This document shows, piece after piece, positions 1-20,799 of a DNA stretch of 64,000 nt. The DNA lies in the IMG/VR virus record IMGVR_UViG_3300045988_129625, positions 1 to 64,000 of that record. One strand, 5' to 3'. This DNA is from a virus. The translations under genes were made by a program, and so were the position numbers. How positions within the stretch are numbered: the first letter of the stretch is position 1; each line of letters starts with the position of its first letter. The notes beneath the pieces are model-generated. The model was given only the letters and a program-made list of their open reading frames with translations, was not told the DNA's origin and ran no database searches.

Positions 1-460
1 CAAAATTCAGCACTCTCTTCCAACAAAATTCAGCACTCTCTTCCAACAAAATTCAGCACTCTCTTCCAACAAAATTCAACAGATCAGCGTTTTAAAACAG
101 CATTCTGTAGGTTCTTCAAACAAGATTAAGGATTGCAGTGCTTTAAAACAGCATAATGTAGGTTCTTCCAACAAAATTCAACAGATCAGCGTTTTAAAAC
201 AGCATTCTGTAGGTTCTTCAAACAAGATTAAGGATTGCAGTGCTTTAAAACAGCATAATGTAGGTTCTTCCAACAAAATTCAACAGATCAGCGTTTTAAA
301 ACAGCATTCTGTAGGTTCTTCAAACAAGATTAAGGATTGCAGTGCTTTAAAACAGCATAATGTAGGATTTTCCAACAAAATTAAGACTTACAGCGTTTTT
401 AAAACAGTATTCTGTAGGTAAGAGTTAAGGACTGCATTATGTGAGTATTTTTTTCAATCG
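1..460. repeat. Tandem direct-repeat array: 3 x 23-bp unit (1-69, caaaattcagcactctcttccaa) followed by about 3.6 copies of a 102-bp unit (70-171, 172-273, 274-375, degenerate partial to ~440); each 102-bp unit is itself two diverged ~51-bp half-repeats; array runs off the window start
   Basis: Direct reading: exact 23-mer x3, then near-identical 102-mers at period 102; last copy carries substitutions (ggttcttcc->ggattttcc; caacagatcagc->aagacttacagc). Confidence 0.9.
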
Positions 461-489
461 GAATGTATAACAATTAAAACATAAACAAC

Positions 490-750
490 ATGAACGTATA
501 TGACTTTGCGCCTGACTTAGATTTGAGTAAGGAGGGAGAAGGTTCTATTTTTGGGGTAAGAGGAATAGAAGGTAGTGATGGTATAGTATATGCTAAGGTA
601 GTTAGCTGTGAAGAAGTTAAGGATTACAGTTGTGAGGGGTGTATTTTTAATGATTGTTATAAGAATGAATGTTTATTATCGCGTAGTAATAGTTGTATGG
701 ATGGAGATTGGATTTGTAGGTACGAACAGGCTGCCATAGAGGGGGAGTAG
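490..750 (+). CDS. hypothetical Cys-rich small protein (paralog of 2328..2576)
   Basis: ORF 86 aa; N-terminus MNVYDFAPDLDLSKEG vs MEVITFGPDMDLSSKEVG and shared C..CIFND..C pattern with ORF 2328..2576. Confidence 0.5.
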   Translation: MNVYDFAPDLDLSKEGEGSIFGVRGIEGSDGIVYAKVVSCEEVKDYSCEGCIFNDCYKNECLLSRSNSCMDGDWICRYEQAAIEGE

Positions 751-857
751 GCGGCGCCTTGGGCTAAGGCCTGCGGTTGTAGGTGGAACGTAGGTCGGAG
801 CAGAGCCGGAACAGTTTATTGTGGAACTAAAAAAAATAAAAAGGAGGAGATAGCGAT

Positions 858-938
858 ATGAAAAAGGCATTTAAGATATTTTCTATTATGTTTGTCATAG
901 AAATAGTGCTGATAGCTATTTTAGATGCTATGGCGTAA
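858..938 (+). CDS. 26-aa hydrophobic peptide MKKAFKIFSIMFVIEIVLIAILDAMA (single predicted TM helix)
   Basis: ATG at 858 preceded by strong SD-like AAAAGGAGGAGAT 6-8 nt upstream, rare in this genome; below the 60-aa ORF-track cutoff. Confidence 0.35.
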   Translation: MKKAFKIFSIMFVIEIVLIAILDAMA

Positions 939-980
939 GTGAGAAAAATTTCTTCATTAATTTTCTTATGCTTTAGACAG

Positions 981-1010
981 AATGCTCCCATCTGCGAAGA
1001 TCGGAGCATT
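981..1010 (+). terminator. stable hairpin, candidate intrinsic terminator/processing structure
   Basis: AATGCTCC(981-988)/GGAGCATT(1003-1010) perfect 8-bp stem, inner ATCT/AGAT with GCGA (GNRA) tetraloop, followed by TTGCTTTAT. Confidence 0.4.
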
Positions 1011-1017
1011 TGCTTTA

Positions 1018-1062
1018 TGGGATTCATGGTGCGGTAGGCTGGTTCGATTCCGGCGATCTCAC
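1018..1062 (+). ncRNA. tRNA-like minihelix (acceptor stem + T-arm, no D/anticodon arms)
   Basis: T-arm GCTGG-TTCGATT-CCGGC (1038-1054) with canonical GGTTCGATTC T-loop; 3' strand GATCTCA (1055-1061) pairs 7/7 (2 G-U) with TGGGATT (1018-1024); discriminator C1062; only 13 nt between 5' strand and T-arm. Confidence 0.3.
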
Positions 1063-1085
1063 ACAACATTAAAATAGGGAAGAAC

Positions 1086-1490
1086 ATGTTAAAAGAAGAA
1101 TTTGAAGAACTGATTAAAAGGGAGGTAAACGAAAATCAGTATAAAAACATAGAAACGGCATACGAGGCTTTGCCGGAGTATATGGATAAGATGTATTTAG
1201 CAAGTGCTATTTCAAATGATATTGGGAAAGCTATTAATGTCTTATCGTTTTTAGGATCGTATATAAGCGAGTTAATGGGTTCAATAATAATCGAAAGGCA
1301 AAAGGTGGAATCATGTGCCTATGATTTAATAAATAAATCGCATGAGGAGGATGACTTGAAAGCAAGAGAGATTGCCGTGCGATTAATAGGAGAGAGGGAA
1401 ACAGTGGCATACACAGTAAAAGAAGGGCTGCCATTGTGGGAACAAGATAAAAAGTTTATAATAGAATTGATGAAGGAGGAAAGAAAATGA
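1086..1490 (+). CDS. hypothetical protein (134 aa)
   Basis: ORF in co-directional packed array; stop overlaps next start (ATGA). Confidence 0.55.
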   Translation: MLKEEFEELIKREVNENQYKNIETAYEALPEYMDKMYLASAISNDIGKAINVLSFLGSYISELMGSIIIERQKVESCAYDLINKSHEEDDLKAREIAVRLIGERETVAYTVKEGLPLWEQDKKFIIELMKEERK

Positions 1491-1828
1491 AAGATGGTAT
1501 TACATTACATCCAGAACACGGATTGAATCCGTCTATAGAAGTCTGCATGATATGTGGCGAAGAGATGGGGATTGCTTTATTAGGGAATAACATCAAAGGG
1601 CAGGCGCCGCATCATATATGCACGGGAGAAATATGTGACAATTGCAAAAAGATAATAGATGACGGAGGTTGTTTTATTATCGAAGTCGAGGATGGATCAG
1701 ATCAAAAGAATCCGTATCGTACAGGGAGATATTGCGCGATAAAGAAAGAAGCAGCAAAGAAAATACTTGGACAGGAACATAGTGTTGTGTACATGGAAAA
1801 GTCTGCATACAGTCAAATAATACCATAA
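1487..1828 (+). CDS. hypothetical Zn-ribbon-like protein (CMICGEE..., CDNCKK)
   Basis: ORF 113 aa with two CxxC pairs; ATGA overlap with upstream ORF. Confidence 0.55.
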   Translation: MKDGITLHPEHGLNPSIEVCMICGEEMGIALLGNNIKGQAPHHICTGEICDNCKKIIDDGGCFIIEVEDGSDQKNPYRTGRYCAIKKEAAKKILGQEHSVVYMEKSAYSQIIP

Positions 1829-1842
1829 AAATAAAGAAAGAT

Positions 1843-2154
1843 ATGTTTACAAAAGAAGAGCGATTATTCATATGGAAAAAGGTATATGAGATGATTGATA
1901 GGCAAGAGGATGGGGAATACATATGTGTTGCATTGAGAAATGTAGTATTAATGTTTTTCAAAACACATAATTTTTATGAGTTGAGTTCAAATAAACTGGT
2001 GAGGATATATTTCCCGGAATTGGAAGAGAAGATAGGTATGGCCACAGAACCAGAGGAAACAAGAACGTTTTATGGGTGGTTTGGTTGTATTAGTCCAGAA
2101 ACGAAGGAGATAAGGCTGAATATTGTAAAAGATATTATAAAAAAATTAGAATAG
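1843..2154 (+). CDS. hypothetical protein (103 aa)
   Basis: ORF in array. Confidence 0.5.
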   Translation: MFTKEERLFIWKKVYEMIDRQEDGEYICVALRNVVLMFFKTHNFYELSSNKLVRIYFPELEEKIGMATEPEETRTFYGWFGCISPETKEIRLNIVKDIIKKLE

Positions 2155-2213
2155 TATTTTTGTTAATCTATTTTATTCATCAAATTAAGTTTTGGGTTTT
2201 GGCATGTCGGTTC

Positions 2214-2307
2214 GTGAGGATAGGCATGTCTATTTCTGTATCATAGAGGGATGGCGCGGCGTGCCGGTATGTATGTGTCGGTCCTGGTTCGATTCTGGGT
2301 ATCTCAC
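2214..2307 (+). ncRNA. tRNA-like element, non-canonical (~94 nt)
   Basis: T-arm CCTGG-TTCGATT-CTGGG (2283-2299) and 3' acceptor strand TATCTCA+C closely matching element at 1038-1062 (shared GGTTCGATTCyGGyrATCTCACAmAACA and upstream ATGGyGCGG); TGAG(G)ATA at 2214-2221 can pair with the 3' strand with one bulge; internal GGCGC/GTGCC mini-hairpin; no canonical cloverleaf or anticodon loop found by eye. Confidence 0.25.
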
Positions 2308-2327
2308 AAACAATAAAGCATAATCAT

Positions 2328-2576
2328 ATGGAAGTAATAACATTTGGTCCAGACATGGATTTGTCTTCTAAAGAAGTAGGAGACGTATTTAGATTAAAAT
2401 TGCATGGCATAGAGTGTGACGTCAAAGTAGTTGGTGACGACGAAGACCCTCCTATGTTCTGCAAAGATTGTATATTTTTTAACGACTCTGAACGGTGTTC
2501 ACTCTCAGAATCGCAAGACTGGTGCCTAAAAAAGCAAGTTGTTTACTGTAAAATAAGACATGATGGGGAAATTTAA
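2328..2576 (+). CDS. hypothetical Cys-rich small protein (paralog of 490..750)
   Basis: ORF 82 aa; paralogy noted above. Confidence 0.5.
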   Translation: MEVITFGPDMDLSSKEVGDVFRLKLHGIECDVKVVGDDEDPPMFCKDCIFFNDSERCSLSESQDWCLKKQVVYCKIRHDGEI

Positions 2577-2751
2577 TACGAAAGACGCCAATTTCTTGTG
2601 GTGTCAAATTGGTAGGATTGATGGGGTGATAGAAACTCTGAACCGCACCGGAGGAGAGATGCCGGAGATTATAGCCGGAGTGCTAAAAAGAATAAGAGAT
2701 GATATAGATAAGTTTGTAGACAATAAAACGAAAGATTATGAGAATATATAG
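2560..2751 (+). CDS. hypothetical protein (63 aa)
   Basis: ORF in array. Confidence 0.4.
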   Translation: MMGKFNTKDANFLWCQIGRIDGVIETLNRTGGEMPEIIAGVLKRIRDDIDKFVDNKTKDYENI

Positions 2752-2971
2752 GAATGATATTATAAAGGCGTCAGCGATAAGCACAGGCAACGACAGAGGT
2801 TTGTTGTTGTGTTCAATAACAGATTCAGGCTTTACGTCTATAGCGAGCGTGATATCGGCCGTTAAAGACAAGTTACCAAACAAAGATCACAAGAAGATGG
2901 TTTTTGAAATTTTGAATGATACGAAAAAAGAGTACGGAAGATATAATAATTGCGGAACAAAAGTATTGTAA
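2738..2971 (+). CDS. hypothetical protein (77 aa)
   Basis: ORF in array. Confidence 0.4.
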   Translation: MRIYRNDIIKASAISTGNDRGLLLCSITDSGFTSIASVISAVKDKLPNKDHKKMVFEILNDTKKEYGRYNNCGTKVL

Positions 2972-3024
2972 TAAAGAGCAGAAAACAATATGTTTATGTA
3001 ATGTTAGTTTTTTCATTTTTATTG

Positions 3025-3070
3025 AAAGGAGCGCCGGCCTGTGAAGGTATGTGCTCCTTTGTATTTGTAT
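3025..3070 (+). terminator. intrinsic terminator candidate
   Basis: AAAGGAGC(3025-3032)/GCTCCTTT(3053-3060) perfect 8-bp stem with GC-rich 20-nt loop, then GTATTTGTAT. Confidence 0.45.
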
Positions 3071-3091
3071 AATACATAAAACAATAATAAT

Positions 3092-3346
3092 ATGACAGAT
3101 AATAACATAGATGTGAATATCGTACCTGTAAGGAATGGTGCGAAACGTGTTGTGGTATCATATTACCATTATTCACGCAAGGACAAAAATCACATGAGTT
3201 CCCAAACGGATTACGTGTGGGAAACAAAGAATGAAGAAATGTTTAAATACTTTGAGGCCAGGAGGACAAAAGTATTTTATAGTCAGATTCGTGCCATGTG
3301 TAGATTCTATGGTAAGAAAAATGTACGTAAATACAAAAAGCTATGA
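3092..3346 (+). CDS. hypothetical protein (84 aa)
   Basis: ORF in array. Confidence 0.4.
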   Translation: MTDNNIDVNIVPVRNGAKRVVVSYYHYSRKDKNHMSSQTDYVWETKNEEMFKYFEARRTKVFYSQIRAMCRFYGKKNVRKYKKL

Positions 3347-3673
3347 TGGGTGATTATACACCATTTTACATCAAAGATGAAAAATGATATACATTTGTAC
3401 GAAGCATCATACCGGGTATCACCAATACCCTCTACCGGTTGCTCAAAAGTGAGATCGCCGGATTCTTTTACTAAAAACGTTTTTGATTTTACCCATCTTA
3501 CGTTTTCAAGATGGAACCTTATATCAAAGACCTCTTTTGCCCAACCGTCTTGTCCGAAACGAGGGACTATGTGATTCGATTGAGTGAAACAAAGTTAGAA
3601 AAGAAAAATATGAAATTAAATAACATCCGTATGTTTTATAACATACGTTTAGTGTAAAATATATAATCACCCT

Positions 3674-4483
3674 ATGATATTAAAAACGACAACCAACGAA
3701 TTTTGTTTCATTAACGTAAGTTTCTATGAAACAGTAGCAGACCCGCGTCATTTCTTTTCACAGGAATATGATGAGATGCCGGAATATGAAGAAGAATCAG
3801 ATTTTGATTTTGATTCTTATTGCAATAAGTTTATTCCTTTTGTACAGGAATGGGCGAATAAGGTGGGCGAACGCCTTTATGAATATGGTGTGAATAACAT
3901 AAAGGTAATATCGGTCGGACATCCAAAAGATCGCAATTATGGTACTGATTGGATGGATGTAAGGGTAGAGTTTTGTGATGAATGGAGGCAAAAGATGTTA
4001 TCTAACATTGGTAAGATTGCCAATGATGATAAATGCAAGAAGTATGCGGAGGCTAATTACCGGTCGGTATCAGGATACATCTTTTTAGGGCCTGAAGATT
4101 TAAAGGAATTTGAAAAGGAAATAATAGAAAGAAAGTCAGATTCGGGATATGATGTAACAATATTGTTAAATATGTATCTAACTTTGGCTTTTGTAAAAGA
4201 ATTTGGATTTAAAGCCGGAGAAGCATGGAGTGAAATAACAGAATATGCTTACGGATGTTTGTCGTATTCTGATTTTGCAACAACAGAAATGCTTATACCG
4301 GAAGGTTCGGAGCATTTATTCAAAGACATTTACACGGCAAAGGCCGACGAATTATATCATCATGTCCTGGATAAATTCGGATGGGCGTGGCGTGATCCGA
4401 AATATAAGTCAGAAACAGAATTATGCGCAATGTTAAAATGGGCAAAAGAAAAAGGCTTGGCCATTGAAGAGTTAAGTATTTAA
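3674..4483 (+). CDS. hypothetical protein (269 aa)
   Basis: Long ORF; upstream hairpin CGTATGTT/AACATACG at 3625-3648. Confidence 0.6.
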   Translation: MILKTTTNEFCFINVSFYETVADPRHFFSQEYDEMPEYEEESDFDFDSYCNKFIPFVQEWANKVGERLYEYGVNNIKVISVGHPKDRNYGTDWMDVRVEFCDEWRQKMLSNIGKIANDDKCKKYAEANYRSVSGYIFLGPEDLKEFEKEIIERKSDSGYDVTILLNMYLTLAFVKEFGFKAGEAWSEITEYAYGCLSYSDFATTEMLIPEGSEHLFKDIYTAKADELYHHVLDKFGWAWRDPKYKSETELCAMLKWAKEKGLAIEELSI

Positions 4484-4510
4484 TTGTTAAACATAAGGCA
4501 GTAGTGGTGC

Positions 4511-4795
4511 GTGAGTATAGGTGCTGCCGTTAAAATATTTTATAAGATGAAAAAAGAAGAGATTCAAACTATTTTATACACAATCAAAGAAGGAGACAGT
4601 ATTAAGATCAAAGTACAAGACAAAAGTGAAGAGATAAGACTGCGGGATCATGTAAGAAGAGTACAGAAATACGGATACAGATTTTGTTTGTCTCATTTAC
4701 ATGATGGAATTTTCTATCTGGAGAAGTTAAAAGAAGGGGATAAGGATAAATACTATAGAGTAATAAACAGAGGAAATGGAAAGACCGGAGTATAA
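4511..4795 (+). CDS. hypothetical protein (94 aa)
   Basis: ORF in array. Confidence 0.4.
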   Translation: MSIGAAVKIFYKMKKEEIQTILYTIKEGDSIKIKVQDKSEEIRLRDHVRRVQKYGYRFCLSHLHDGIFYLEKLKEGDKDKYYRVINRGNGKTGV

Positions 4796-5019
4796 CAAGC
4801 TACGTAAAATGGCTAAGACTACTCCAGGTCTGATAGTGGACGAGGCGCAAAACATGATGCGTGTATCGCTATACGATAATGGGGAACTTAAGAAGGTGGT
4901 AGTAGTAATGAAATGCGATTCTTTTTTACAGTCAAAAAGTAACATAGAAAAGATAATGTTATTATCATCTTCTATAGAAGATAGAAAAAACAAGAAAAAA
5001 AATAAAACAAAATCAGAAA

Positions 5020-5403
5020 ATGAACAGAATAACAAAAATAAGAGAAGAAATAGGAGGAAAACAGGTTGATTTGACCTTTTACGGGCGCTTTTGCAGCCTT
5101 ATCGAAGGTGATAGGAAGATAATACTAAGGGCGATAAAAAGCGGTCATAAAAAAGGCGTAATCGGAGCCATTCAGCCTGGGAGACATGATAGAATTTGGA
5201 CCACATGGTCTATTGCTTTTGATGATTTGAAGGTAGGGGATACGGTAGAGTTCAGTACATCTGGAAAATACAATCCCGGATTTCATGCTACGGAAAAGTA
5301 TGTAGGGTGTGTAGAATGGATAAGGGGATCGGAATGTGCGATAAAAACCGGCAATGGAATAGCAGTAGTATTAATTAAACATGTAGAAAGGGTGGTAAAA
5401 TAA
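5020..5403 (+). CDS. hypothetical protein (127 aa)
   Basis: ORF in array. Confidence 0.5.
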   Translation: MNRITKIREEIGGKQVDLTFYGRFCSLIEGDRKIILRAIKSGHKKGVIGAIQPGRHDRIWTTWSIAFDDLKVGDTVEFSTSGKYNPGFHATEKYVGCVEWIRGSECAIKTGNGIAVVLIKHVERVVK

Positions 5404-5684
5404 TGGATTTAAGGATGTTTATAGACCTATTTCAGGAGATTGAGGTAGAGAACTTGTTTAAAGCGTTAGATTTATGTATGGAATATGTAAGATTAGATTT
5501 ACATGTGTTTAATGTAGGAGCTTATGTAACGTGTTCATACAGTAATGATCTTGAATCTCTTTCACAGGCAGAAGGTTGTAATGTGAATATGATAATAGAG
5601 GTACCCCACTTATTCGAAGCATTCATGGAATATGCTTCACCGGAAATGAAGTTGTATTATGAAAAACTAACAGAGATAGTATAA
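5403..5684 (+). CDS. hypothetical protein (93 aa)
   Basis: ORF in array, start abuts upstream stop. Confidence 0.5.
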   Translation: MDLRMFIDLFQEIEVENLFKALDLCMEYVRLDLHVFNVGAYVTCSYSNDLESLSQAEGCNVNMIIEVPHLFEAFMEYASPEMKLYYEKLTEIV

Positions 5685-5685
5685 T

Positions 5686-6159
5686 ATGAAAGAAGAAGTA
5701 GAACGGATAAAGAAGTTGGTAGGCATAGATCATAACAGATGGGAGCAACCTTGTACATGTGATAAATGCAAGAACATGTGTAAGGTTCCTTGTATTGGTA
5801 CGCCAAAAGACATAGAGGCTATCATAGATGCCGGATACGCTGACAGGTTAAAAGGAACAATGTGGATGGTAGGGTATCTTGCAGTGAAAGAAAAACCAAT
5901 AACGATGATCCAGCCAACAGAGAAAGATGGGTGGTGCGCATTCCGCCGGCCGGACGGTCTATGCGAGCTGCATGACCGTGGACTAAAGCCGACTGAAGGA
6001 GTTCTGGCTTCTTGTAAGGTGGTTAAAGAAGACAATGTTCCAACATACGAAACATCCGTACTTAGAGCAGTAGCTCATGAGTGGGTTAAAGTGGAGAACT
6101 TTGGAGATGTAATGAGGGTCGTTTTTAAATTTTTGCATGAAAATGAACGTAGAAAATGA
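5686..6159 (+). CDS. hypothetical Cys-rich protein (157 aa)
   Basis: ORF; CTCDKCKNMCKVPC motif. Confidence 0.55.
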   Translation: MKEEVERIKKLVGIDHNRWEQPCTCDKCKNMCKVPCIGTPKDIEAIIDAGYADRLKGTMWMVGYLAVKEKPITMIQPTEKDGWCAFRRPDGLCELHDRGLKPTEGVLASCKVVKEDNVPTYETSVLRAVAHEWVKVENFGDVMRVVFKFLHENERRK

Positions 6160-6547
6160 ATTAGATAAAGTAGTTAAGATCCTAAAAGAAAAAGGATTTG
6201 TAGTATATAGAAAGGGTGGAAAAGAGCCAGGTGTGTTTTACGCTAAAGAAGGTGACAGTCGAATAGGGTTCGTTTATCCTAATAACGGATATATATATGA
6301 CAGAATAAAAATGTGGTCTTTTTCAAGAATGTACAAACCACATAAGAAAACCGGATCTTCGTGCTTAATGTGTGTCAGCGACGAATTTACGATAGAGAAT
6401 GCGATTAAGAACATAGAGGATAGACTGTGGGTAAATTACATAAAAGACGGTAGCAGAAAACGACCAGAAGAATATAAAAATATAAGAGAATTTGTTGGTA
6501 GCTTCACTAAATTCTACAGCTCTGTAGAATTAGTTGAAGTTAAGTAG
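6137..6547 (+). CDS. hypothetical protein (136 aa)
   Basis: ORF in array. Confidence 0.55.
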   Translation: MKMNVENELDKVVKILKEKGFVVYRKGGKEPGVFYAKEGDSRIGFVYPNNGYIYDRIKMWSFSRMYKPHKKTGSSCLMCVSDEFTIENAIKNIEDRLWVNYIKDGSRKRPEEYKNIREFVGSFTKFYSSVELVEVK

Positions 6548-6625
6548 TTTTCCATGTAAGTTAGTTGCCGGCACTGGTCTGTGAAGATAGGTGTCGTTTT
6601 TTTTATTCAAGGAAGGAGGACAAAG

Positions 6626-7147
6626 ATGGAGAAAATAAGAATAGAAGTAGACAAAGTGATATTATACTATATGGATCGGGTAGACCCTGACGGGAACCTA
6701 TACCGGTTCTATGTATATAAAGATATGGCATCTGAAATAGAATACTTTTGTACGGAAGAGGCAGGTAATATGACTATACCAATCGGAGAAGGAAAGTATA
6801 TTGAAATCGTGCCAAGGGAAATAGTGAAAATACCAGTAAGGGGATACAGAAGGCTTGCTGGAATATGGAATTGTGAAACATGTAACGGAAAGGGATGGTA
6901 TAGGCTTTTTAATTATTTCAAATACAAGCCGACCCTATGTTATTTTAAAAAAGCGGGACATGATGAAAATGGGAACACAAGATACGAAATATCATTATTT
7001 AATGCCACTATGAATGTGACAAGGTGTTTTAATCTGTGGAGAATGAAGCCAGGAAAGCATGCTATGATAACAAACGAGTGTGGCGCCTTGGATATTATAA
7101 AAGAAAAATTTGACAACATAAATATAGTGGAATATGGATCTAAATAA
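6626..7147 (+). CDS. hypothetical protein (start trimmed from 6581 to ATG 6626)
   Basis: In-frame ATG at 6626 preceded by AAGGAAGGAGGA SD-like run; ORF-track start at 6581 lies inside hairpin-rich sequence. Confidence 0.55.
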   Translation: MEKIRIEVDKVILYYMDRVDPDGNLYRFYVYKDMASEIEYFCTEEAGNMTIPIGEGKYIEIVPREIVKIPVRGYRRLAGIWNCETCNGKGWYRLFNYFKYKPTLCYFKKAGHDENGNTRYEISLFNATMNVTRCFNLWRMKPGKHAMITNECGALDIIKEKFDNINIVEYGSK

Positions 7148-7493
7148 ATTGTATAAAGAAATAGAAGAAGCAGAGGTCAGTCTGAATGCAAAAAGATTAA
7201 AGTACATCAAAGAAGCATTAGCAGAAAACAATGGAATTATAAAGCTAAAGTTTAAAGAGTTTAAAGAAACTAATGATGCGTTTGACTTTGATGATCAGTT
7301 TCCGGTGATAATAGAAATTAATGGGATTCCTATGTTTTTAACGGAGGTGTATGTCAAAAAAAACGATTTTCGTATAGTTCTGCTGGATTATGATGATATG
7401 ACTTTAGGTGATTATGATAATACAGGGGAAAATGAACAGGTTGCTTATTTTATTAACTATTGTTTAAATCAAGACAAAGATGGGAAAGAGTAG
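7134..7493 (+). CDS. hypothetical acidic protein (119 aa)
   Basis: ORF in array. Confidence 0.5.
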   Translation: MDLNKLYKEIEEAEVSLNAKRLKYIKEALAENNGIIKLKFKEFKETNDAFDFDDQFPVIIEINGIPMFLTEVYVKKNDFRIVLLDYDDMTLGDYDNTGENEQVAYFINYCLNQDKDGKE

Positions 7494-13963: not shown

Positions 13964-14218
13964 ATGAACGAAGTAATTTTAAGCAACATGTTAGGATGTC
14001 AGACATATTGTATATCAGACAGTCCTTCGAATAGATACTGTTTTATTGGGCCTATTGAATGTAACGGGAAGTTAATAGAAGAGTTTAGGAAGGGAATAAT
14101 AGTAAAATTGAAATATGTGGAAAAACGAGTCCTGGATACATTTACGGACAACGGAATCGACCTGAGCAATTACACTCACTGTATTATTGTGAAGCGGAAT
14201 TTTTATCTCGCTTGGTAA
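13964..14218 (+). CDS. hypothetical protein (84 aa)
   Basis: ORF in array. Confidence 0.45.
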   Translation: MNEVILSNMLGCQTYCISDSPSNRYCFIGPIECNGKLIEEFRKGIIVKLKYVEKRVLDTFTDNGIDLSNYTHCIIVKRNFYLAW

Positions 14219-14236
14219 CAGTAAAATGCAAACGAT

Positions 14237-14899
14237 ATGAACAATTTTGTAATAGATACTCCAGATAATTTCTGGCAAATAAGATGGCTTGACAAGTATA
14301 TGGAGGGCCACAAAGGGTTCATAGCTGGTGGATGTTTTAAGAATATCCTTTCCGGAGAAAAGGTAAAAGATATTGATATTTTCTTTGAAAGCGAAAGCGA
14401 TTTTCAGGAAGCTGTTGATTTGTTCAATGATGAAAAACATCAGAAAGAAGGATGGAAATTTAAGTATAGGAATGAGAAGGTATGCGCATTCCAGAAAGAG
14501 GGAGAAAAGGTATGGGTAGAGTTCATAGAGTCAGAGTTCGGAAAGCCAGAAGAGATTCTCAGGAGCTTCGACTTTACTGTGGCAAAAATGGCCTACTATA
14601 AGGAGCCTAAATACGAAGAAAAGGAAGATGATTATTTTCCATTCTCATCTGCAAGTATAGTAGCATACGAGTACAAACTACTCTATCATGAGAAATTCTT
14701 CGAACATCTTCATATGAAGAGGCTGGTTATTGACGAAAATATCCCTTTTCCAGTAAGTACATGGGAAAGGTCATATAAGTATAAGGGGTATGGTTACAAT
14801 ATGTGTAGGGAGACAAAGAAAAAACTTCTACGGGCTCTTAAAGGTGTAAATGTAGAGGAGGAAGATGTATCTTTGTACACTACTGGAGGATGGGATTAA
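14237..14899 (+). CDS. Pol-beta superfamily nucleotidyltransferase with CCA-adding/poly(A)-polymerase-like head motif
   Basis: IAGGCFKNILSGEKVKDIDIFF matches GGxVRDxLLGxxxxDxDxx (G-[GS], 11 residues, D-x-D) of class II tRNA nucleotidyltransferases; the same spacing also fits the OAS/CD-NTase GS..D.D pattern. Confidence 0.55.
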   Translation: MNNFVIDTPDNFWQIRWLDKYMEGHKGFIAGGCFKNILSGEKVKDIDIFFESESDFQEAVDLFNDEKHQKEGWKFKYRNEKVCAFQKEGEKVWVEFIESEFGKPEEILRSFDFTVAKMAYYKEPKYEEKEDDYFPFSSASIVAYEYKLLYHEKFFEHLHMKRLVIDENIPFPVSTWERSYKYKGYGYNMCRETKKKLLRALKGVNVEEEDVSLYTTGGWD

Positions 14900-15357
14900 C
14901 TTATAAAACAAAATTGCTTATGAAAACATTAGAACAACTTAAACAATTAACATCAAAATGTTTAGACGGTAGAGATTTTAATAGACTGGCTAAATTTGTT
15001 CCATATAGCATGATAAAGGATTTCGGTATGGAGCCGAATGAAGAATATGACAACGAGGAAAAGTGGAACAGTACTGTAGTTGAATTTACCAGAGAAAATG
15101 TCCTGAAACAGCTTGAAGAAGACGTGAGATTCGGTTTTGAAAAGGCATTAAATCAGAGAGGAATATCAGCCAGTTTGATGTTTGAATGTGTGATGATGTG
15201 GAACTACATCCTGGAAGAAGGTCTTGAAAGCTGGGGTGAGGATGATTATGCATTTTATGGACTCCCTCTATTTAAAGCTACGGCTGTAAAATATGGATGG
15301 GACAATCCGATAGGGGAAGACAGCGGGAGAGAAAGAAAATATGATTCACAGTATTAA
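14890..15357 (+). CDS. hypothetical protein (155 aa), possibly functionally linked to the upstream NTase
   Basis: Overlapping start with 14237..14899. Confidence 0.5.
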   Translation: MGLTYKTKLLMKTLEQLKQLTSKCLDGRDFNRLAKFVPYSMIKDFGMEPNEEYDNEEKWNSTVVEFTRENVLKQLEEDVRFGFEKALNQRGISASLMFECVMMWNYILEEGLESWGEDDYAFYGLPLFKATAVKYGWDNPIGEDSGRERKYDSQY

Positions 15358-15539
15358 ATGGGCATATCATGAGCACAAGTAAAGAATACAAGGCAGTAAG
15401 GAACTGTATATTAAATGAACTTCACCTTACCAAAGAAGATATAATAAAAAACATAGAACCATTATTGGAAAAACTCGTAAAACAGTGTATGCTTAATACA
15501 TACGGAGGAAACAATTAGATAGAACATTGGATCAGATGT

Positions 15540-16205
15540 ATGGTAGCAGATGAGCTTAAACAAAGGGATTATGGTTTTGTAGAAAGAATAAGCAAGGAAA
15601 TCATAAAAGATCATGTGTTGAATGAGTTGAACATAATTGTAAGTCCCAAAAATGAAAGATGCGTATGTGAAAATAGAGTACCATCAAGAAAAGATGGTTT
15701 GTATCTAATCTACGGAAATGGACACGCTGAGCCGTTTACCGGCGATAACTCCAAAGATTGTGTACAATACATCGGGTTGAAGCACAGATACATGTCATTT
15801 GCAATCTCACTGACGGAGCATGATATCGTACAATTGCTTGACGATGATAGCCGTGAAGAATCCGGAAGTGGGACATATTACGAACGTGAATGTGATGCGC
15901 TGTTTGACATTGACGGACGCGGCAATACGGAACGCCTTGTAGCCAGAAATCCAAAATTGAGAAATCTGCTGGAAGATGGCGAGTATATACCATCTCTTGG
16001 TCAATTAAATTTAATGGCCCATTATATGGACGAACTAAACAAAGCATTCGCTTATGTTTCGGCATCTCCCCTCTCCTCGACGTGGTATTGGTCCAGCACT
16101 GAGAGCAGCCAGGCCGTCGCGTGGTACGTGGTCTTCTCCAGTGGCCTCACGGGCACCGGCAACAAGCACATCGGAGACATGGTTCGGACGGTAATTGATT
16201 TTTAA
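15540..16205 (+). CDS. hypothetical protein (221 aa) with A-depleted GC-rich C-terminal patch
   Basis: Last ~45 codons dominated by NNC codons (TCC AGC GCC GTC TAC TTC GGC ACC AAC CAC ATC GAC), protein ..STWYWSSTESSQAVAWYVVFSSGLTGTG.. Confidence 0.55.
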   Translation: MVADELKQRDYGFVERISKEIIKDHVLNELNIIVSPKNERCVCENRVPSRKDGLYLIYGNGHAEPFTGDNSKDCVQYIGLKHRYMSFAISLTEHDIVQLLDDDSREESGSGTYYERECDALFDIDGRGNTERLVARNPKLRNLLEDGEYIPSLGQLNLMAHYMDELNKAFAYVSASPLSSTWYWSSTESSQAVAWYVVFSSGLTGTGNKHIGDMVRTVIDF

Positions 16206-19170: not shown

Positions 19171-19572
19171 TTAAGCCAAATTAAATCATTTTGAATCTTT
19201 TTTATTATCAAAAGACATATCTTTGCCCAAAAAAAACAAACATAATGGAAGAAAAAGAGATAAAAGAAGCAATAATCGAGAATAATGCATAACCCATACA
19301 AATCATAAACAATTTGTATTGTATTATGCATAATAGCCAAAAGCTATTCCGATTATTAGCCTAAGTGTTGAAACAAACACTACGTTATTTAAGAATAGAT
19401 AGTTACCTACGGATGTTTGCCCAAGTTCGTAGCTCTAAGGTAAGTGATTAAACAGTTCTGGTATTCAGGAACAGTGTTGCTTACAAAAAAAACCTTAAAT
19501 AACATTGGCGATGGGTACTAACAGAGTTTCACTCTGACTTATGTTGAATAAACATTAAAAACGTTTGTAGAT
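19171..19572 (+). ncRNA. candidate IscB omega RNA / IS200-605 left-end region
   Basis: 400-bp non-coding stretch immediately 5' of iscB; nested hairpin ATGCATAA-ATACAAAT-[cataaaca]-ATTTGTAT-TTATGCAT (19285-19331); TTACCT..AGGTAA/CTACG..CGTAG structure near 19390-19440; CAGAGT-ttc-ACTCTG and ATGTT..AACAT stems just before the ATG. Confidence 0.5.
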
Positions 19573-20799
19573 ATGGTGTACGTACAAGACATAAATGGTA
19601 AACCTATGATGCCTACAACAAGGCATGGTAAGGTTAGGAGACTGCTTAAAGACAAAAAGGCAATCGTTGTAAACCTATGTCCGTTTACCATCAAATTAAT
19701 GTACGTAACATCTGATTACAAACAAGAAATTGTGTTAGGCGTTGATGCTGGTACTAAACATGTTGGTCTATCGGCTACAACGAAAAGCAAAGAACTTTAC
19801 AGCAGTGAAGTTATTCTTAGAAATGATATCGTAGATCTTTTGTCTACCAGAAGGGAGCTACGAAGATCAAGACGAAATAGATTGAGATATAGAAAACCTC
19901 GTTTTGATAATAGAATAAAAAGTAGGCGTCCGGGATGAGTAGCACCTTCGGTGAAATACAAAGTAGACGCCCATATTCGTGTTATTGACAATGTATGTTC
20001 TATATTACCAATATCTCGTATTGTTATCGAAGTAGCTCAATTTGATACTCAAAAGATTAACAATCCTAATATATCAGGTAAAGAATATCAGGAGGGTGAT
20101 CAACTTGGATTTTGGAACGTTAGGGAATATGTTTTAGCAAGAGATGGACATAAATGCCAGCATTGTAAGGGAAAGTCAAAAGACCCAGTATTGAATGTTC
20201 ATCATATTGAATCACGAAAGACAGGTGGAGATTCCCCATCTAATCTTATTACCTTATGTGAAACTTGTCATAAAGAATACCATAAAGGTAATATAGATTT
20301 AAAGATCAAACGGGGATCGTCGCTTCGCGACGCAGCCGTAATGGGAATAATGAAATGGAGATTGTATGAAGAACTAAGGTCTAAATACAACAGAGTTTCT
20401 ATGACTTTCGGTTATGTTACAAAATACAATAGGATTAAACATGGTATTGAAAAATCTCATGTTTTCGATGCATTTGTTATTTCTAAAAACTTTGATGCTA
20501 TAAGGTTAGGATATTATTATAAAGTAAGATTAGTAAGAAGACATAATCGTCAGATCCATAAACAAAAGATTCCAAAAGGAGGGATAAAAAGACCAAATCA
20601 ATCTCCTTTTGAAGTTTTTGGTTTCCGATTGTTTGATAGGGTTATGTTTGAAAACAGTTATTATTTTATATTCGCAAGGCGTAAAACCGGTAGTTTTAAT
20701 ATTCGAGATATTGATGGTAAAAACCAAAGAGATATTACATACAAGAAATTGAAATTATCAAGGTGTAAACGCTTTATGGTACAAAAGGAAATGGATTGA
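19573..20799 (+). CDS. iscB: IscB RNA-guided nuclease (PLMP-RuvC-I-bridge helix-RuvC-II-HNH-RuvC-III) interrupted by one in-frame TGA at 19936-19938
   Basis: PLMP-like N-term (KPMMPTTRHGKVRRLLK), RuvC-I LGVDAGTKHVGLS, Arg-rich bridge helix RRELRRSRRNRLRYRKPRFDNR, RuvC-II IVIEVAQFD, HNH CQHCKGK..NVHHIESRK..LCETCH, RuvC-III SHVFDAF; ORFs 19573-19938 and 19951-20799 are in the same frame, separated only by TGA + 12 nt. Confidence 0.85.

Follow-up and report, generated by a model that had tools for sequence, protein, structure and literature searches.

A probable short form of the Gabija anti-defence family Gad2, derived from a class II nucleotidyltransferase head, in a crAss-like gut phage

What is the role of a small phage protein that carries the nucleotide-transfer motif of CCA-adding enzymes on a chain too short to be one of the usual kind? 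The question is raised by a gene located in a 64,000-nucleotide stretch of viral DNA (positions 1 to 64,000 of record IMGVR_UViG_3300045988_129625; "the window" below means this whole stretch), which is ~97% identical to the genome of the crAss-like gut phage csAssE-Sib. The sequence-only reading had noticed here a Pol-beta-type nucleotidyltransferase (NTase), and had proposed tRNA repair, anti-defence or nucleotide signalling as possible roles. The ORF and its motif are real and lie where they had been placed (Table 1). The product is 97% identical to WOZ57379.1 of csAssE-Sib, whose copy of the gene carries the annotation "polyA polymerase", and a PHROG profile search assigned the ORF to phrog_4400 (E 1.3e-65). 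Purifying selection acts on the gene, the population dN/dS being 0.088 over 58 unique population alleles. The gene is surrounded by early genes and by DNA replication and recombination genes; in Pfam and PHROG searches its neighbours within the window are anonymous. The reading that we favour, with a probability of roughly 0.55, is that this gene is a short form, reduced to the NTase domain, of the phage Gad2 (Gabija anti-defence 2) family, and that its product is very likely an active stand-alone nucleotidyltransferase.

Table 1. Positions of the NTase gene, of its conserved segments and of the flanking ORFs in the window.
Feature	Position	Strand	Residues and sequence	Remarks
Upstream ORF	13964..14218	+	84 aa	no family
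CDS, short-form Gad2-like nucleotidyltransferase (class II NTase head and partial neck)	14237..14899	+	220 aa	stop codon included
Motif A	14315..14386	+	27-50, GFIAGGCFKNILSGEKVKDIDIFF	G31-G32 turn, metal-binding D45-x-D47
E95	14519..14521	+	95	acidic, central beta-strand; possibly a further metal ligand, peculiar to the short clade
Motif-B-like segment	14546..14593	+	104-119, PEEILRSFDFTVAKMA	D112-F113-T114 conserved
Motif-C-like segment	14696..14734	+	154-166, FFEHLHMKRLVID	aligns to class II "G..Dl..k.iR"
Neck helix	14744..14794	+	170-186, PFPVSTWERSYKYKGYG	invariant R178, Y182, G186
C-terminal tail	14870..14896	+	212-220, SLYTTGGWD	Y214 and terminal D220 nearly invariant
Downstream gene, phrog_5706	14920..15357	+	145 aa	function not assigned; 21 nt after the NTase stop

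The conserved residues of the protein were analyzed over 69 diverse homologs. In motif A, GGCFKNILSGEKVKDID has the same spacing as the class II signature GGxVRDxLLGxxxxDxD, and the segment aligns to motif A of the human, E. coli and other CCA enzymes. G31, G32, D45, D47, D112, R178 and Y182 are invariant among the homologs, and position 95 is always acidic (54 E, 15 D); hhalign pairs the E95 strand with the "E-x-A-L-A-R" strand of class II enzymes, at a register shift of two residues. The "RRD" of motif B is the ribose 2'-OH sensor of class II enzymes. Both of its Arg are replaced in the NTase, where a variable position 110 and Phe at position 111 precede D112: hhalign maps "eeDl.RRDfTiNA.A" on "Peeil..FDFTItKfA", neither D112 nor F113 varies, and S, N, K or Q are found at positions 109 and 110. 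In the motif-C-like segment no homolog deviates at F155, and conservation exceeds 90% at L158 and V164. Motif D of class II enzymes, "EDxxR", is an amino-acid template for CTP and ATP. It is absent from the neck helix: hhalign leaves EDplR in a 7-residue gap and aligns R178 and Y182 to the next "R..RF", an alternative HMMER alignment brings S-T-[FW]-x-R to the place of E-D-x-x-R, and the Glu and Asp are kept in neither. At the C-terminus Y214 is found in 67 of the 69 homologs and D220 in 64, and in 62 of them the protein ends with this Asp; the confidence of the AF2 model is low for the last 55 residues. Since G31-G32, D45, D47, D112, R178, Y182 and E95 are all kept and the dN/dS is low, the NTase is very likely catalytically active, as judged from its retained residues.

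The resemblance to class II tRNA nucleotidyltransferases and poly(A) polymerases was borne out by Pfam, PDB-profile and hhalign comparisons. With a class II head-plus-neck profile built from 8 sequences, hhalign gave a probability of 83% and an E-value of 9.2e-6 over 177 columns. This 8-sequence profile was needed: with the single E. coli Cca sequence, motif A alone was aligned. PDB searches by a single sequence or a narrow profile found nothing, and with a diverse profile the best PDB matches, which are weak, are mostly CCA enzymes or poly(A) polymerase (PAP). The Pfam family PolyA_pol (PF01743) scores 15.2 bits on the NTase (E 0.028), below its gathering threshold of 23; its head is the sole recurrent Pfam match of the family, weakly present in 26 of the 69 members (best E 1.8e-5). 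The head-domain fold is nearest to class II enzymes, and Pfam and fold comparisons led us to reject membership of the CD-NTase, MenT, MNT, ANT and RlaP families. The protein had been described as a minimal head domain, which is right for the head and imprecise for the extent, the class II alignment covering the head and part of the neck (residues 6-201). Canonical CCA-adding enzymes usually have about 330-450 aa (one phage CCA enzyme in this analysis has only 246), and their body and tail domains bind the acceptor/T arm of tRNA. By descent, the NTase corresponds to the head of a class II tRNA nucleotidyltransferase/poly(A) polymerase together with part of the neck; the body and tail that measure tRNA are gone, and so are the RR by which motif B senses the ribose and the base-templating EDxxR. 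For the NTase domain of the Gad2 family, the analysis shows a descent specifically from class II CCA-adding enzymes and poly(A) polymerase, with loss of all elements of tRNA and CCA specificity.

To the question of function, the Gad2 family provides the most direct answer. In precomputed annotations, PF26128 ("Gad2") is assigned to all but one of the 120 homologs listed, and to a 95%-identical protein, P0016 (E <= 1e-5). The profile of the family matches the validated Gad2 of Bacillus phage SPbetaL7 with 72 bits (E 3e-24, Gad2 residues 16-180, in its N-terminal half), and BLASTP of the NTase against this protein gives E 4e-8, the identity being only 22%. PHROG matches are reciprocal: the NTase matches phrog_18122 at 2.5e-10 and Gad2 matches phrog_4400 at 7.9e-27. 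The NTase also shows 47% identity (E 8e-62) to a 214-aa Streptococcus suis protein, which is a Gad2 homolog in Supplementary Table 10 of the original study, where the short homologs have no verified mark. In published work, SPbetaL7 becomes sensitive to Gabija once gad2 is knocked out, and Gabija no longer protects when a 394-aa homolog from Brevibacillus is present; an NTase domain is predicted in Gad2, whose expression is toxic. Anti-Gabija activity is thus on record for long forms alone, i.e. the 400-aa SPbetaL7 Gad2 and the 394-aa homolog. The anti-defence role, one of the possibilities raised from the sequence, is the best-supported function, by the Pfam family and by homology to a validated anti-Gabija protein, and the gene is an ordinary new member of an already catalogued anti-defence family. 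The assignment to Gad2 corrects the public annotation "polyA polymerase / CCA-adding enzyme", which is misleading.

Short form and Gad2 (SPbetaL7 ORF_159; PF26128) are both phage-borne and have homologous NTase domains, with A-G-G, D-x-D (at positions 45 and 47 in both), F-D-F-T and the R..(K/R)Y of the neck helix in common; identical residues are found in the aligned Gad2 at G31-G32, D45, D47, D112-F113-T114, R178 and Y182. They differ in length (220 versus 400 aa), the short form having no counterpart of the ~220-aa C-terminal half, and they belong to separate PHROGs (4400 and 18122). At E95, K35 and K117 of the short form, Gad2 has Q, T and M. We looked for a separately encoded C-terminal half by comparing Gad2 residues 185-399 with 645 ORF segments of the window: there was no match (best E 0.34), and such a gene is absent from the window. 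The C-terminal half might be needed for target recognition. To say that the short form works like Gad2 fixes no chemistry, because the mechanism of Gad2 is still unsolved as of 2026. The enzymatic nature of Gad2 sets it apart from target-binding inhibitors such as Gad1.

The distribution of the short form was then considered. It comprises 1,138 clusters at 50% identity, with a typical length of 190-230 aa, and occurs almost only in phages (112 phage records); a search with the close subfamily in 185,579 species genomes gave 1 match, on a single MAG contig. Homologs 54-55% identical to the NTase are borne by Bacteroides fragilis phages, and members are frequent in Streptococcus and Listeria phages of 30-40 kb. 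The short forms, reduced to the catalytic domain, make up a much larger family, with members in a very abundant human-gut crAss-like phage, in Bacteroides fragilis phages and in dairy Streptococcus phages. The gene mostly lies within modules for DNA replication and recombination. Over 14 lineages no conserved neighbour indicates a function, and only generic replication and recombination genes recur: SSB (5/14), helicase loader (4/14), RecT, RusA, dUTPase and DnaB. Streptococcus phages carry it with the exonuclease on one side and SSB on the other. In Bacteroides-phage-type contigs it lies between dUTPase and two thymidylate-synthase/dCMP-hydroxymethylase-like genes, with a carbamoyltransferase, an AAA_28 protein and an SNF2 helicase close by. 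No informative domain fusions were found among longer relatives. B. fragilis is reported to encode Gabija, the expression of which was associated with protection from a Bacteroides phage.

Some features of the immediate surroundings had to be corrected. A start-overlapping 155-aa ORF had been described downstream of the NTase. The PHROG match, the reference annotation and the homolog alignments all begin at its residue 11, i.e. at the actual start given in Table 1, and the ATG at 14890 simply arises from the codons of the conserved G-W-D (GGATGGGATTAA). Homologs of this downstream ORF are found in Ackermannviridae-type phages devoid of the NTase; because the two sets of phages are nearly disjoint, the ORF is not regarded as a partner. 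A two-gene module was rejected given this start, the different phages and the lack of recurrence beside the NTase in the 14 lineages. We also rejected the 311-aa fusion of the upstream ORF with the NTase, which appears in many database entries: it is an artefact, as none of the 79 population variants lacks a TAA or TGA stop after the upstream ORF, and the entries translate TAA as Q, as seen in P0001. Nor is stop-codon recoding retained for this phage, with only 3 TAG read-through candidates and a csAssE-Sib reference that has no suppressor tRNA. Read with the standard code, the sequence has a coding density of 0.91. As for the tRNA-like minihelices that had been proposed in the same genome, a scan of the 64 kb with ARAGORN yields neither tRNA nor tmRNA, and Rfam at E <= 0.1 gives a HEARO RNA only.

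How such a protein could act can be outlined as follows. The NTase would be expressed along with early and replication genes, and would use a nucleoside triphosphate to place an NMP or dNMP on an acceptor. The most likely acceptor would be the 3'-OH of a polynucleotide end, the kind used, to our knowledge, by every characterised class II enzyme. This transfer, made without templating of the CCA type, would blunt a host defence of the Gabija kind. Gabija consists of an OLD-family nuclease and a helicase, and is currently viewed as acting at phage DNA ends. A more specific version, which we put forward as a long shot, is that the bare class II core adds untemplated (deoxy)nucleotides to 3' ends of phage DNA or to recombination intermediates, and so disarms a defence that senses DNA ends, e.g. 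Gabija. The idea fits the loss of the 2'-OH-sensing RR of motif B, the recurrence of genes for SSB, RecT and exonuclease beside the family, and this current view of Gabija. If true, the short form would reveal the mechanism of Gad2, and a new activity of class II NTases, on DNA ends rather than on RNA, would be at hand. In any case the 220-aa short form is a compact candidate for studying how a nucleotidyltransferase defeats an OLD-family defence.

Readings closer to the known class II enzymes keep RNA as the substrate. The GenBank label suggests a poly(A)/poly(N) polymerase, which would tail host RNAs for decay or block tRNA 3' ends in the course of host takeover. We consider this unlikely: the NTase lacks both an RNA-binding C-terminal region and the RRD and EDxxR that bacterial PAP retains, its PolyA_pol score stays below the Pfam cut-off, and the label, though compatible with the anti-Gabija phenotype of the homolog, leaves it unexplained. 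A canonical or minimal CCA-adding enzyme, restoring the CCA of host or phage tRNAs trimmed by nucleases, would share the class II head and neck fold, and would find company in the near-identical csAssE-Sib reference, which has 6 tRNAs, a polynucleotide kinase/3'-phosphatase, an NrnA-like phosphodiesterase and a Ro60 homolog; moreover small Pol-beta NTases without extra domains, such as RlaP, do add nucleotides to damaged RNA. Yet the tRNA-binding body and tail, the motif B RR and EDxxR are all missing from the NTase, the 6 tRNAs are outside the region of the window, which itself has none, and the RNA-repair genes of the reference are roughly 16 kb or more distant. A tblastn search with E. coli Cca 1-240 recovered 423 phage CCA enzymes at E <= 1e-8, and the record of this phage is absent among the 30 matches listed; the 30-40 kb Streptococcus and Listeria phages show no RNA-repair genes in the regions examined. 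The tRNA-repair function that had been proposed for the ORF is for these reasons distinctly unlikely, and we do not retain it.

Other readings move away from polynucleotide ends. An enzyme of DNA modification or nucleotide metabolism, for instance one activating a modified base or nucleotide, could protect phage DNA indirectly; base hypermodification is published as protecting against Gabija. Loss of the 2'-OH-sensing RR would, by inference, permit deoxynucleotide substrates, and the dUTPase and thymidylate-synthase-like neighbours in Bacteroides-phage-type contigs go in the same direction. Such a context is nevertheless seen in only 2 of the 14 lineages and is absent from the window, and we know of no class II NTase that acts on nucleotides or bases, which makes this reading improbable. 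Still less credit can be given to a small-molecule or protein NTase akin to aminoglycoside/lincosamide NTases or MNT antitoxins, including the variant in which the enzyme would AMPylate GajA or GajB. Class II enzymes score twice as high, no NTP_transf_2 or ANT family recurs in Pfam over the 69 members, and acidity is no argument, the E. coli Cca head plus neck alone being equally acidic (pI 5.27). Placement with aminoglycoside NTases or MNT antitoxins, which the sequence-only reading had named as the outcome that would overturn it, is thus not what was found: the nearest fold is class II. The same reading had considered a CD-NTase/OAS-like signalling enzyme, and one may add an enzyme that would produce decoy nucleotides and thereby subvert immunity based on cyclic nucleotides. 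The generic hG[GS]...DxD spacing is compatible with it, and minimal polymerases producing such decoys have been reported. The fold and profile similarity to CD-NTases does not exceed that to other Pol-beta families, and this role appears highly improbable.

The short form can finally be compared with other small NTases. PDB 2la3 (S. pneumoniae NP_344798.1) is a stand-alone "CCA-adding enzyme head domain"; it scores below full class II enzymes, and no sequence relationship to the NTase is detectable. RlaP (PF10127), an RNA-ligase-associated Pol-beta NTase, resembles the short form in being small and without an accessory RNA-binding domain, and has been reported to add 1-2 NMPs to RNA 3'-OH ends. 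By analogy, RlaP illustrates the kind of mechanism of which a minimal NTase may be capable. It belongs to a different family, PF10127 giving no match to the NTase at E <= 1, and no RNA ligase is found among the NTase neighbours or in the csAssE-Sib reference annotation. The "head-only" NTases of podophages (Klebsiella phage fHe-Kpn01 Gp22, 182 aa; Pseudomonas phage Emajogi gp22) are likewise small, stand-alone, class-II-like and encoded in early/replication regions; no Gp22-like gene is evident in the region examined of KP34. The NTase matches phrog_1614 at 1.4e-9, over the head only. Structural analogues exist in LIMEzero, PP2 and fHe-Yen3-01, and these podophage proteins are Foldseek neighbours of the short form. 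The podophage proteins are remote from the short form, with 12-18% identity in BFVD alignments, and toxicity is their only known property. Their motif positions nearly match those of the short form (hG[GS] at ~29, DxD at ~44, hDh at ~114), and some of them are annotated as "Gad2 family".

The ORF at 14237..14899 (+) encodes 220 aa, and its residues 27-50, GFIAGGCFKNILSGEKVKDIDIFF, have a spacing identical to class II motif A (GGxVRDxLLGxxxxDxD), which confirms both the ORF and the motif proposed by the sequence-only reading. The 64-kb window is AT-rich (GC ~0.37), changes coding strand near 40 kb and is ~97% identical to the human gut phage csAssE-Sib (OR575929.1, 151 kb), whose structural genes are a crAss-like set. 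The counterpart of the nucleotidyltransferase (NTase) in this phage, WOZ57379.1, is labelled 'polyA polymerase; CCA-adding enzyme'; the GenBank label poly(A) polymerase is a mis-annotation. The best 80 viral-contig matches are all 95-99% identical and one identical protein was found on 131 contigs; gut metagenomes contain this phage lineage at very high abundance. Two features previously associated with the gene were not recovered. The 155-aa ORF said to overlap it truly starts at M11 (14920), 21 nt past the NTase stop, the upstream ATG being created by conserved Gly-Trp-Asp codons, and no tRNA or tRNA-like RNA was detected within the 64-kb window, where tRNA-like minihelices had been announced for the same genome. 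Many public entries for the gene (database entries P0001-P0010 and others; window 13964-14899) are 311 aa long because gene callers read the TAA stop of an upstream 84-aa ORF as Gln. TAA or TGA is kept at this stop in the DNA of 79/79 variants, and we rejected these 'fusions' as an annotation artefact that inflates the fusion count.

Sequence comparison shows homology between the NTase and the enzymatic half of Gad2, a validated anti-Gabija protein. Precomputed annotation assigns PF26128, named 'Gad2' in gene tables, to all but one of the 120 homologs listed. Gad2 of Bacillus phage SPbetaL7 is a 400-aa protein with an AlphaFold-predicted NTase domain; its expression is toxic, its knockout renders SPbetaL7 fully sensitive to Gabija, a 394-aa homolog from a Brevibacillus prophage abolishes Gabija defence, and 170 homologs were reported in phages and prophages (bioRxiv 10.1101/2023.05.01.538930). 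Its mechanism was still described as not elucidated in February 2026 (PMC12904381). Using the Gad2 sequence from Supplementary Table 7 of the former study, our family profile matched residues 16-180 (72 bits, E 3e-24), and BLASTP aligned the window protein with 22% identity over 175 residues (E 4e-8). Gad2 falls in phrog_18122 (1.1e-89) and cross-matches phrog_4400 (7.9e-27); the window protein matches the same two families at 2.5e-10 and 1.3e-65, respectively. Both proteins have A-G-G, D45-x-D47, F-D-F-T, R178 and Y182 in common, whereas E95, K35 and K117 of the short clade are Q, T and M in Gad2. No counterpart of the C-terminal half of Gad2 was found within the window; this half, absent from the short form, may be needed for targeting. 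Short-type proteins of 214 aa from Streptococcus suis already figure, unmarked as verified, in the discoverers' homolog table (bioRxiv 10.1101/2023.05.01.538930), and one shares 47% identity with the window protein (E 8e-62). The family is already catalogued (Pfam Gad2; short proteins listed as Gad2 homologs in 2023). Our analysis adds the recognition of the catalytic-domain-only form as a large, almost entirely phage-borne sister family, together with its occurrence in a crAss-like phage that is highly abundant in the gut.

The ancestry of this domain was analyzed at the profile level. The only Pfam match of the NTase is a sub-threshold one to the PolyA_pol head (15.2 bits vs 23); across 69 members PolyA_pol is the sole recurrent family (26 match, best E 1.8e-5), and fold comparison matched CCA-type enzymes of Aquifex, Arabidopsis, human and Bacillus, with Z down to 7.1. 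Alignment of the family profile by hhalign with a class II head-plus-neck profile (E. coli Cca, PcnB and six phage CCA enzymes) gave Prob 83% and E 9.2e-6 over 177 columns, residues 6-201. Motif A is retained. Motif B, 'eeDl.RRDfTiNA', maps onto 'PEEIL..FDFTVAK': the Asp-Phe-Thr core is kept and the two arginines are replaced by a variable residue and Phe111. A motif-C-like segment, 'FFEHL..KRLV', can be recognised, the EDxxR template is aligned to a gap, and R178 and Y182 line up with the R..RF helix that follows it. From this mapping the NTase is therefore a class II head with part of the neck; compared with class II enzymes, it has lost ribose-, base- and tRNA-specifying elements. This specific ancestry, with its motif-by-motif account of loss, is a further addition of our analysis. 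The earlier proposal of a CCA or tRNA-repair-type NTase is supported as to the class II head and its motif A and unsupported for the remainder, RR, EDxxR and the tRNA-specifying elements being gone; identity as a CCA-adding enzyme or PAP was rejected on these losses. A CCA repair enzyme is improbable with its defining motifs and domains missing. The record of the NTase-bearing phage is not among the 30 listed of the 423 canonical phage CCA enzymes matched by tblastn (query E. coli Cca, E <= 1e-8).

Among phage records, 112 carry homologs (Streptococcus thermophilus, Bacillus, Aeromonas, Maribacter, Bacteroides fragilis, Listeria and others), and a search of 185,579 species genomes for the close subfamily gave only 1 match, on a MAG contig of Bacteroidaceae. 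In a survey of same-strand neighbours in 14 independent lineages, SSB (5/14), DnaC/DnaI-type helicase loaders (4/14) and HNH endonucleases (3/14) recur, as do RecT, RusA, dUTPase and DnaB; its place in S. thermophilus phages is between an exonuclease and SSB. On B. fragilis-phage-type contigs it sits among a dUTPase, two thymidylate-synthase-like genes and a carbamoyltransferase. Such a context would suit an enzyme of a DNA-modification pathway, but it is found in just 2 of the 14 lineages, and this role is slightly harder still to credit than CCA repair. For an NTase acting on proteins or small molecules, fold similarity to such enzymes is weak and we hold this to be the least probable of the three. 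Within the window the neighbours are anonymous genes; the downstream 145-aa gene (phrog_5706) is found mainly in Ackermannviridae-type phages without the NTase. No informative domain fusions were found among NTase relatives. Some Streptococcus phages seem to have the gene in two pieces, an N-terminal and a C-terminal ORF, as in BFVD A0A286QMX6 (111 aa) and A0A286QMX1 (108 aa) of Streptococcus phage P0095, for which a true split, a frameshift or an insertion could be the reason; a separate PHROG, phrog_24565, matches the window protein in its C-terminal half only. In B. fragilis-phage-type genomes, namely records L178 (Logan ERR4796164 contig, 1-7489) and L002 (Bacteroides phage BF503P4, 2942-6457), the Gad2-like gene is surrounded by a dUTPase, two thymidylate-synthase/dCMP-hydroxymethylase-like genes, a 605-aa carbamoyltransferase, an AAA_28 protein, DUF3310 and an SNF2 helicase, which together resemble a pathway of DNA base hypermodification.

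The gene is genuine and under constraint: dN/dS is 0.088 for 58 unique alleles from the population of the NTase-bearing phage. Clustering of the homologs at 90% and 50% identity gives 1,128 and 1,138 clusters, respectively, almost all with lengths of 190-230 aa. G31, G32, D45, D47, D112, F113, F155, R178, Y182 and G186 are invariant in 69 diverse relatives, and residue 95 is acidic in all of them (54 E, 15 D). The protein end is a nearly invariant Asp in 62/69 relatives; in the tail of the short family, Y214 is kept in 67/69 members and the terminal Asp in 64/69. This tail, without class II counterpart and of low confidence in the structure model, could be a partner-binding or active-site-capping element. 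As judged from its residues, the NTase belongs to the class II lineage as a conserved member and retains those expected for catalysis.

D45, D47 and D112, with E95 in the short clade, would perform two-metal nucleotidyl transfer, with the Gly-Gly turn of motif A and K35 holding the donor triphosphate. A polynucleotide 3'-OH would be the most probable acceptor, since to our knowledge all class II enzymes characterised so far use one. With RR and EDxxR lost, CCA templating is not expected and dNTP discrimination may be absent. As biological role we favour counter-defence of the Gad2 type, predicted for the short form with a probability of about 0.5-0.55. Gabija is encoded by B. fragilis, where an association was reported between its expression and protection from a phage (PMC13139388). 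On the current view Gabija acts at the ends of phage DNA once RecBCD is blocked, and its OLD-family relatives cleave tRNA, so that tailing of DNA ends and of RNA 3' ends are both possible. The replication/recombination context and the lost 2'-OH sensor slightly favour DNA ends; that related proteins are toxic when expressed alone fits either.

Features of the window and of the reference phage
Feature	Position	Strand	Remarks
C-terminal tail S-L-Y-x-x-G-h-D-COOH of the NTase	14870-14896	+	conserved across the short family
DUF3988/Lcl_C-like gene	15369-16205	+	two genes 3' of the NTase; in-frame TAG at 15516-15518
ABC/SMC-type ATPase, 268 aa	16217-17023	+	Pfam SMC_N, AAA_21; without nuclease domain
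HEARO RNA, full-length	19330-19522	+	Rfam RF02033, 113 bits vs gathering score 83
IscB-like ORF with RuvC and HNH motifs	19573-20799	+	3' of the HEARO RNA
RNA repair/quality-control set of OR575929.1	L089 2615-7027; L090 22756-24725 (DNA records of OR575929.1)		outside the window

Other elements of the window are collected in the Table. The IscB-like ORF is cut by a single in-frame TGA into 19573-19938 and 19951-20799; with the HEARO RNA it may form a mobile OMEGA-type element, decaying or read through. The TAG of the DUF3988/Lcl_C-like gene is CAG (Gln) in 28/30 population variants and AAG in 2/30, no suppressor tRNA was found in the reference genome and the window has only 3 TAG read-through candidates; the TAG is most simply a nonsense mutation in the window genome, stop-codon recoding being unsupported. 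The ATPase gene, 1.3 kb 3' of the Gad2-like gene, has PADLOC matches to mad3 (1.3e-16), AriA (2.3e-12), PtuA, LmuB and, weakly, GajA, several of which, GajA included, span the Walker-A region only; its product might conceivably serve as a decoy for, or an antagonist of, defence ATPases of the OLD family. The reference phage encodes, ~16 kb or more from the NTase, 6 tRNAs, a PNK/3'-phosphatase, an NrnA-like phosphodiesterase and a Ro60 (Rsr) homolog that adjoins tRNA-Tyr and tRNA-Lys, the four further tRNAs completing the set; no RNA ligase is annotated in OR575929.1. A DGR cassette and two TnpB genes are further features of this genome.
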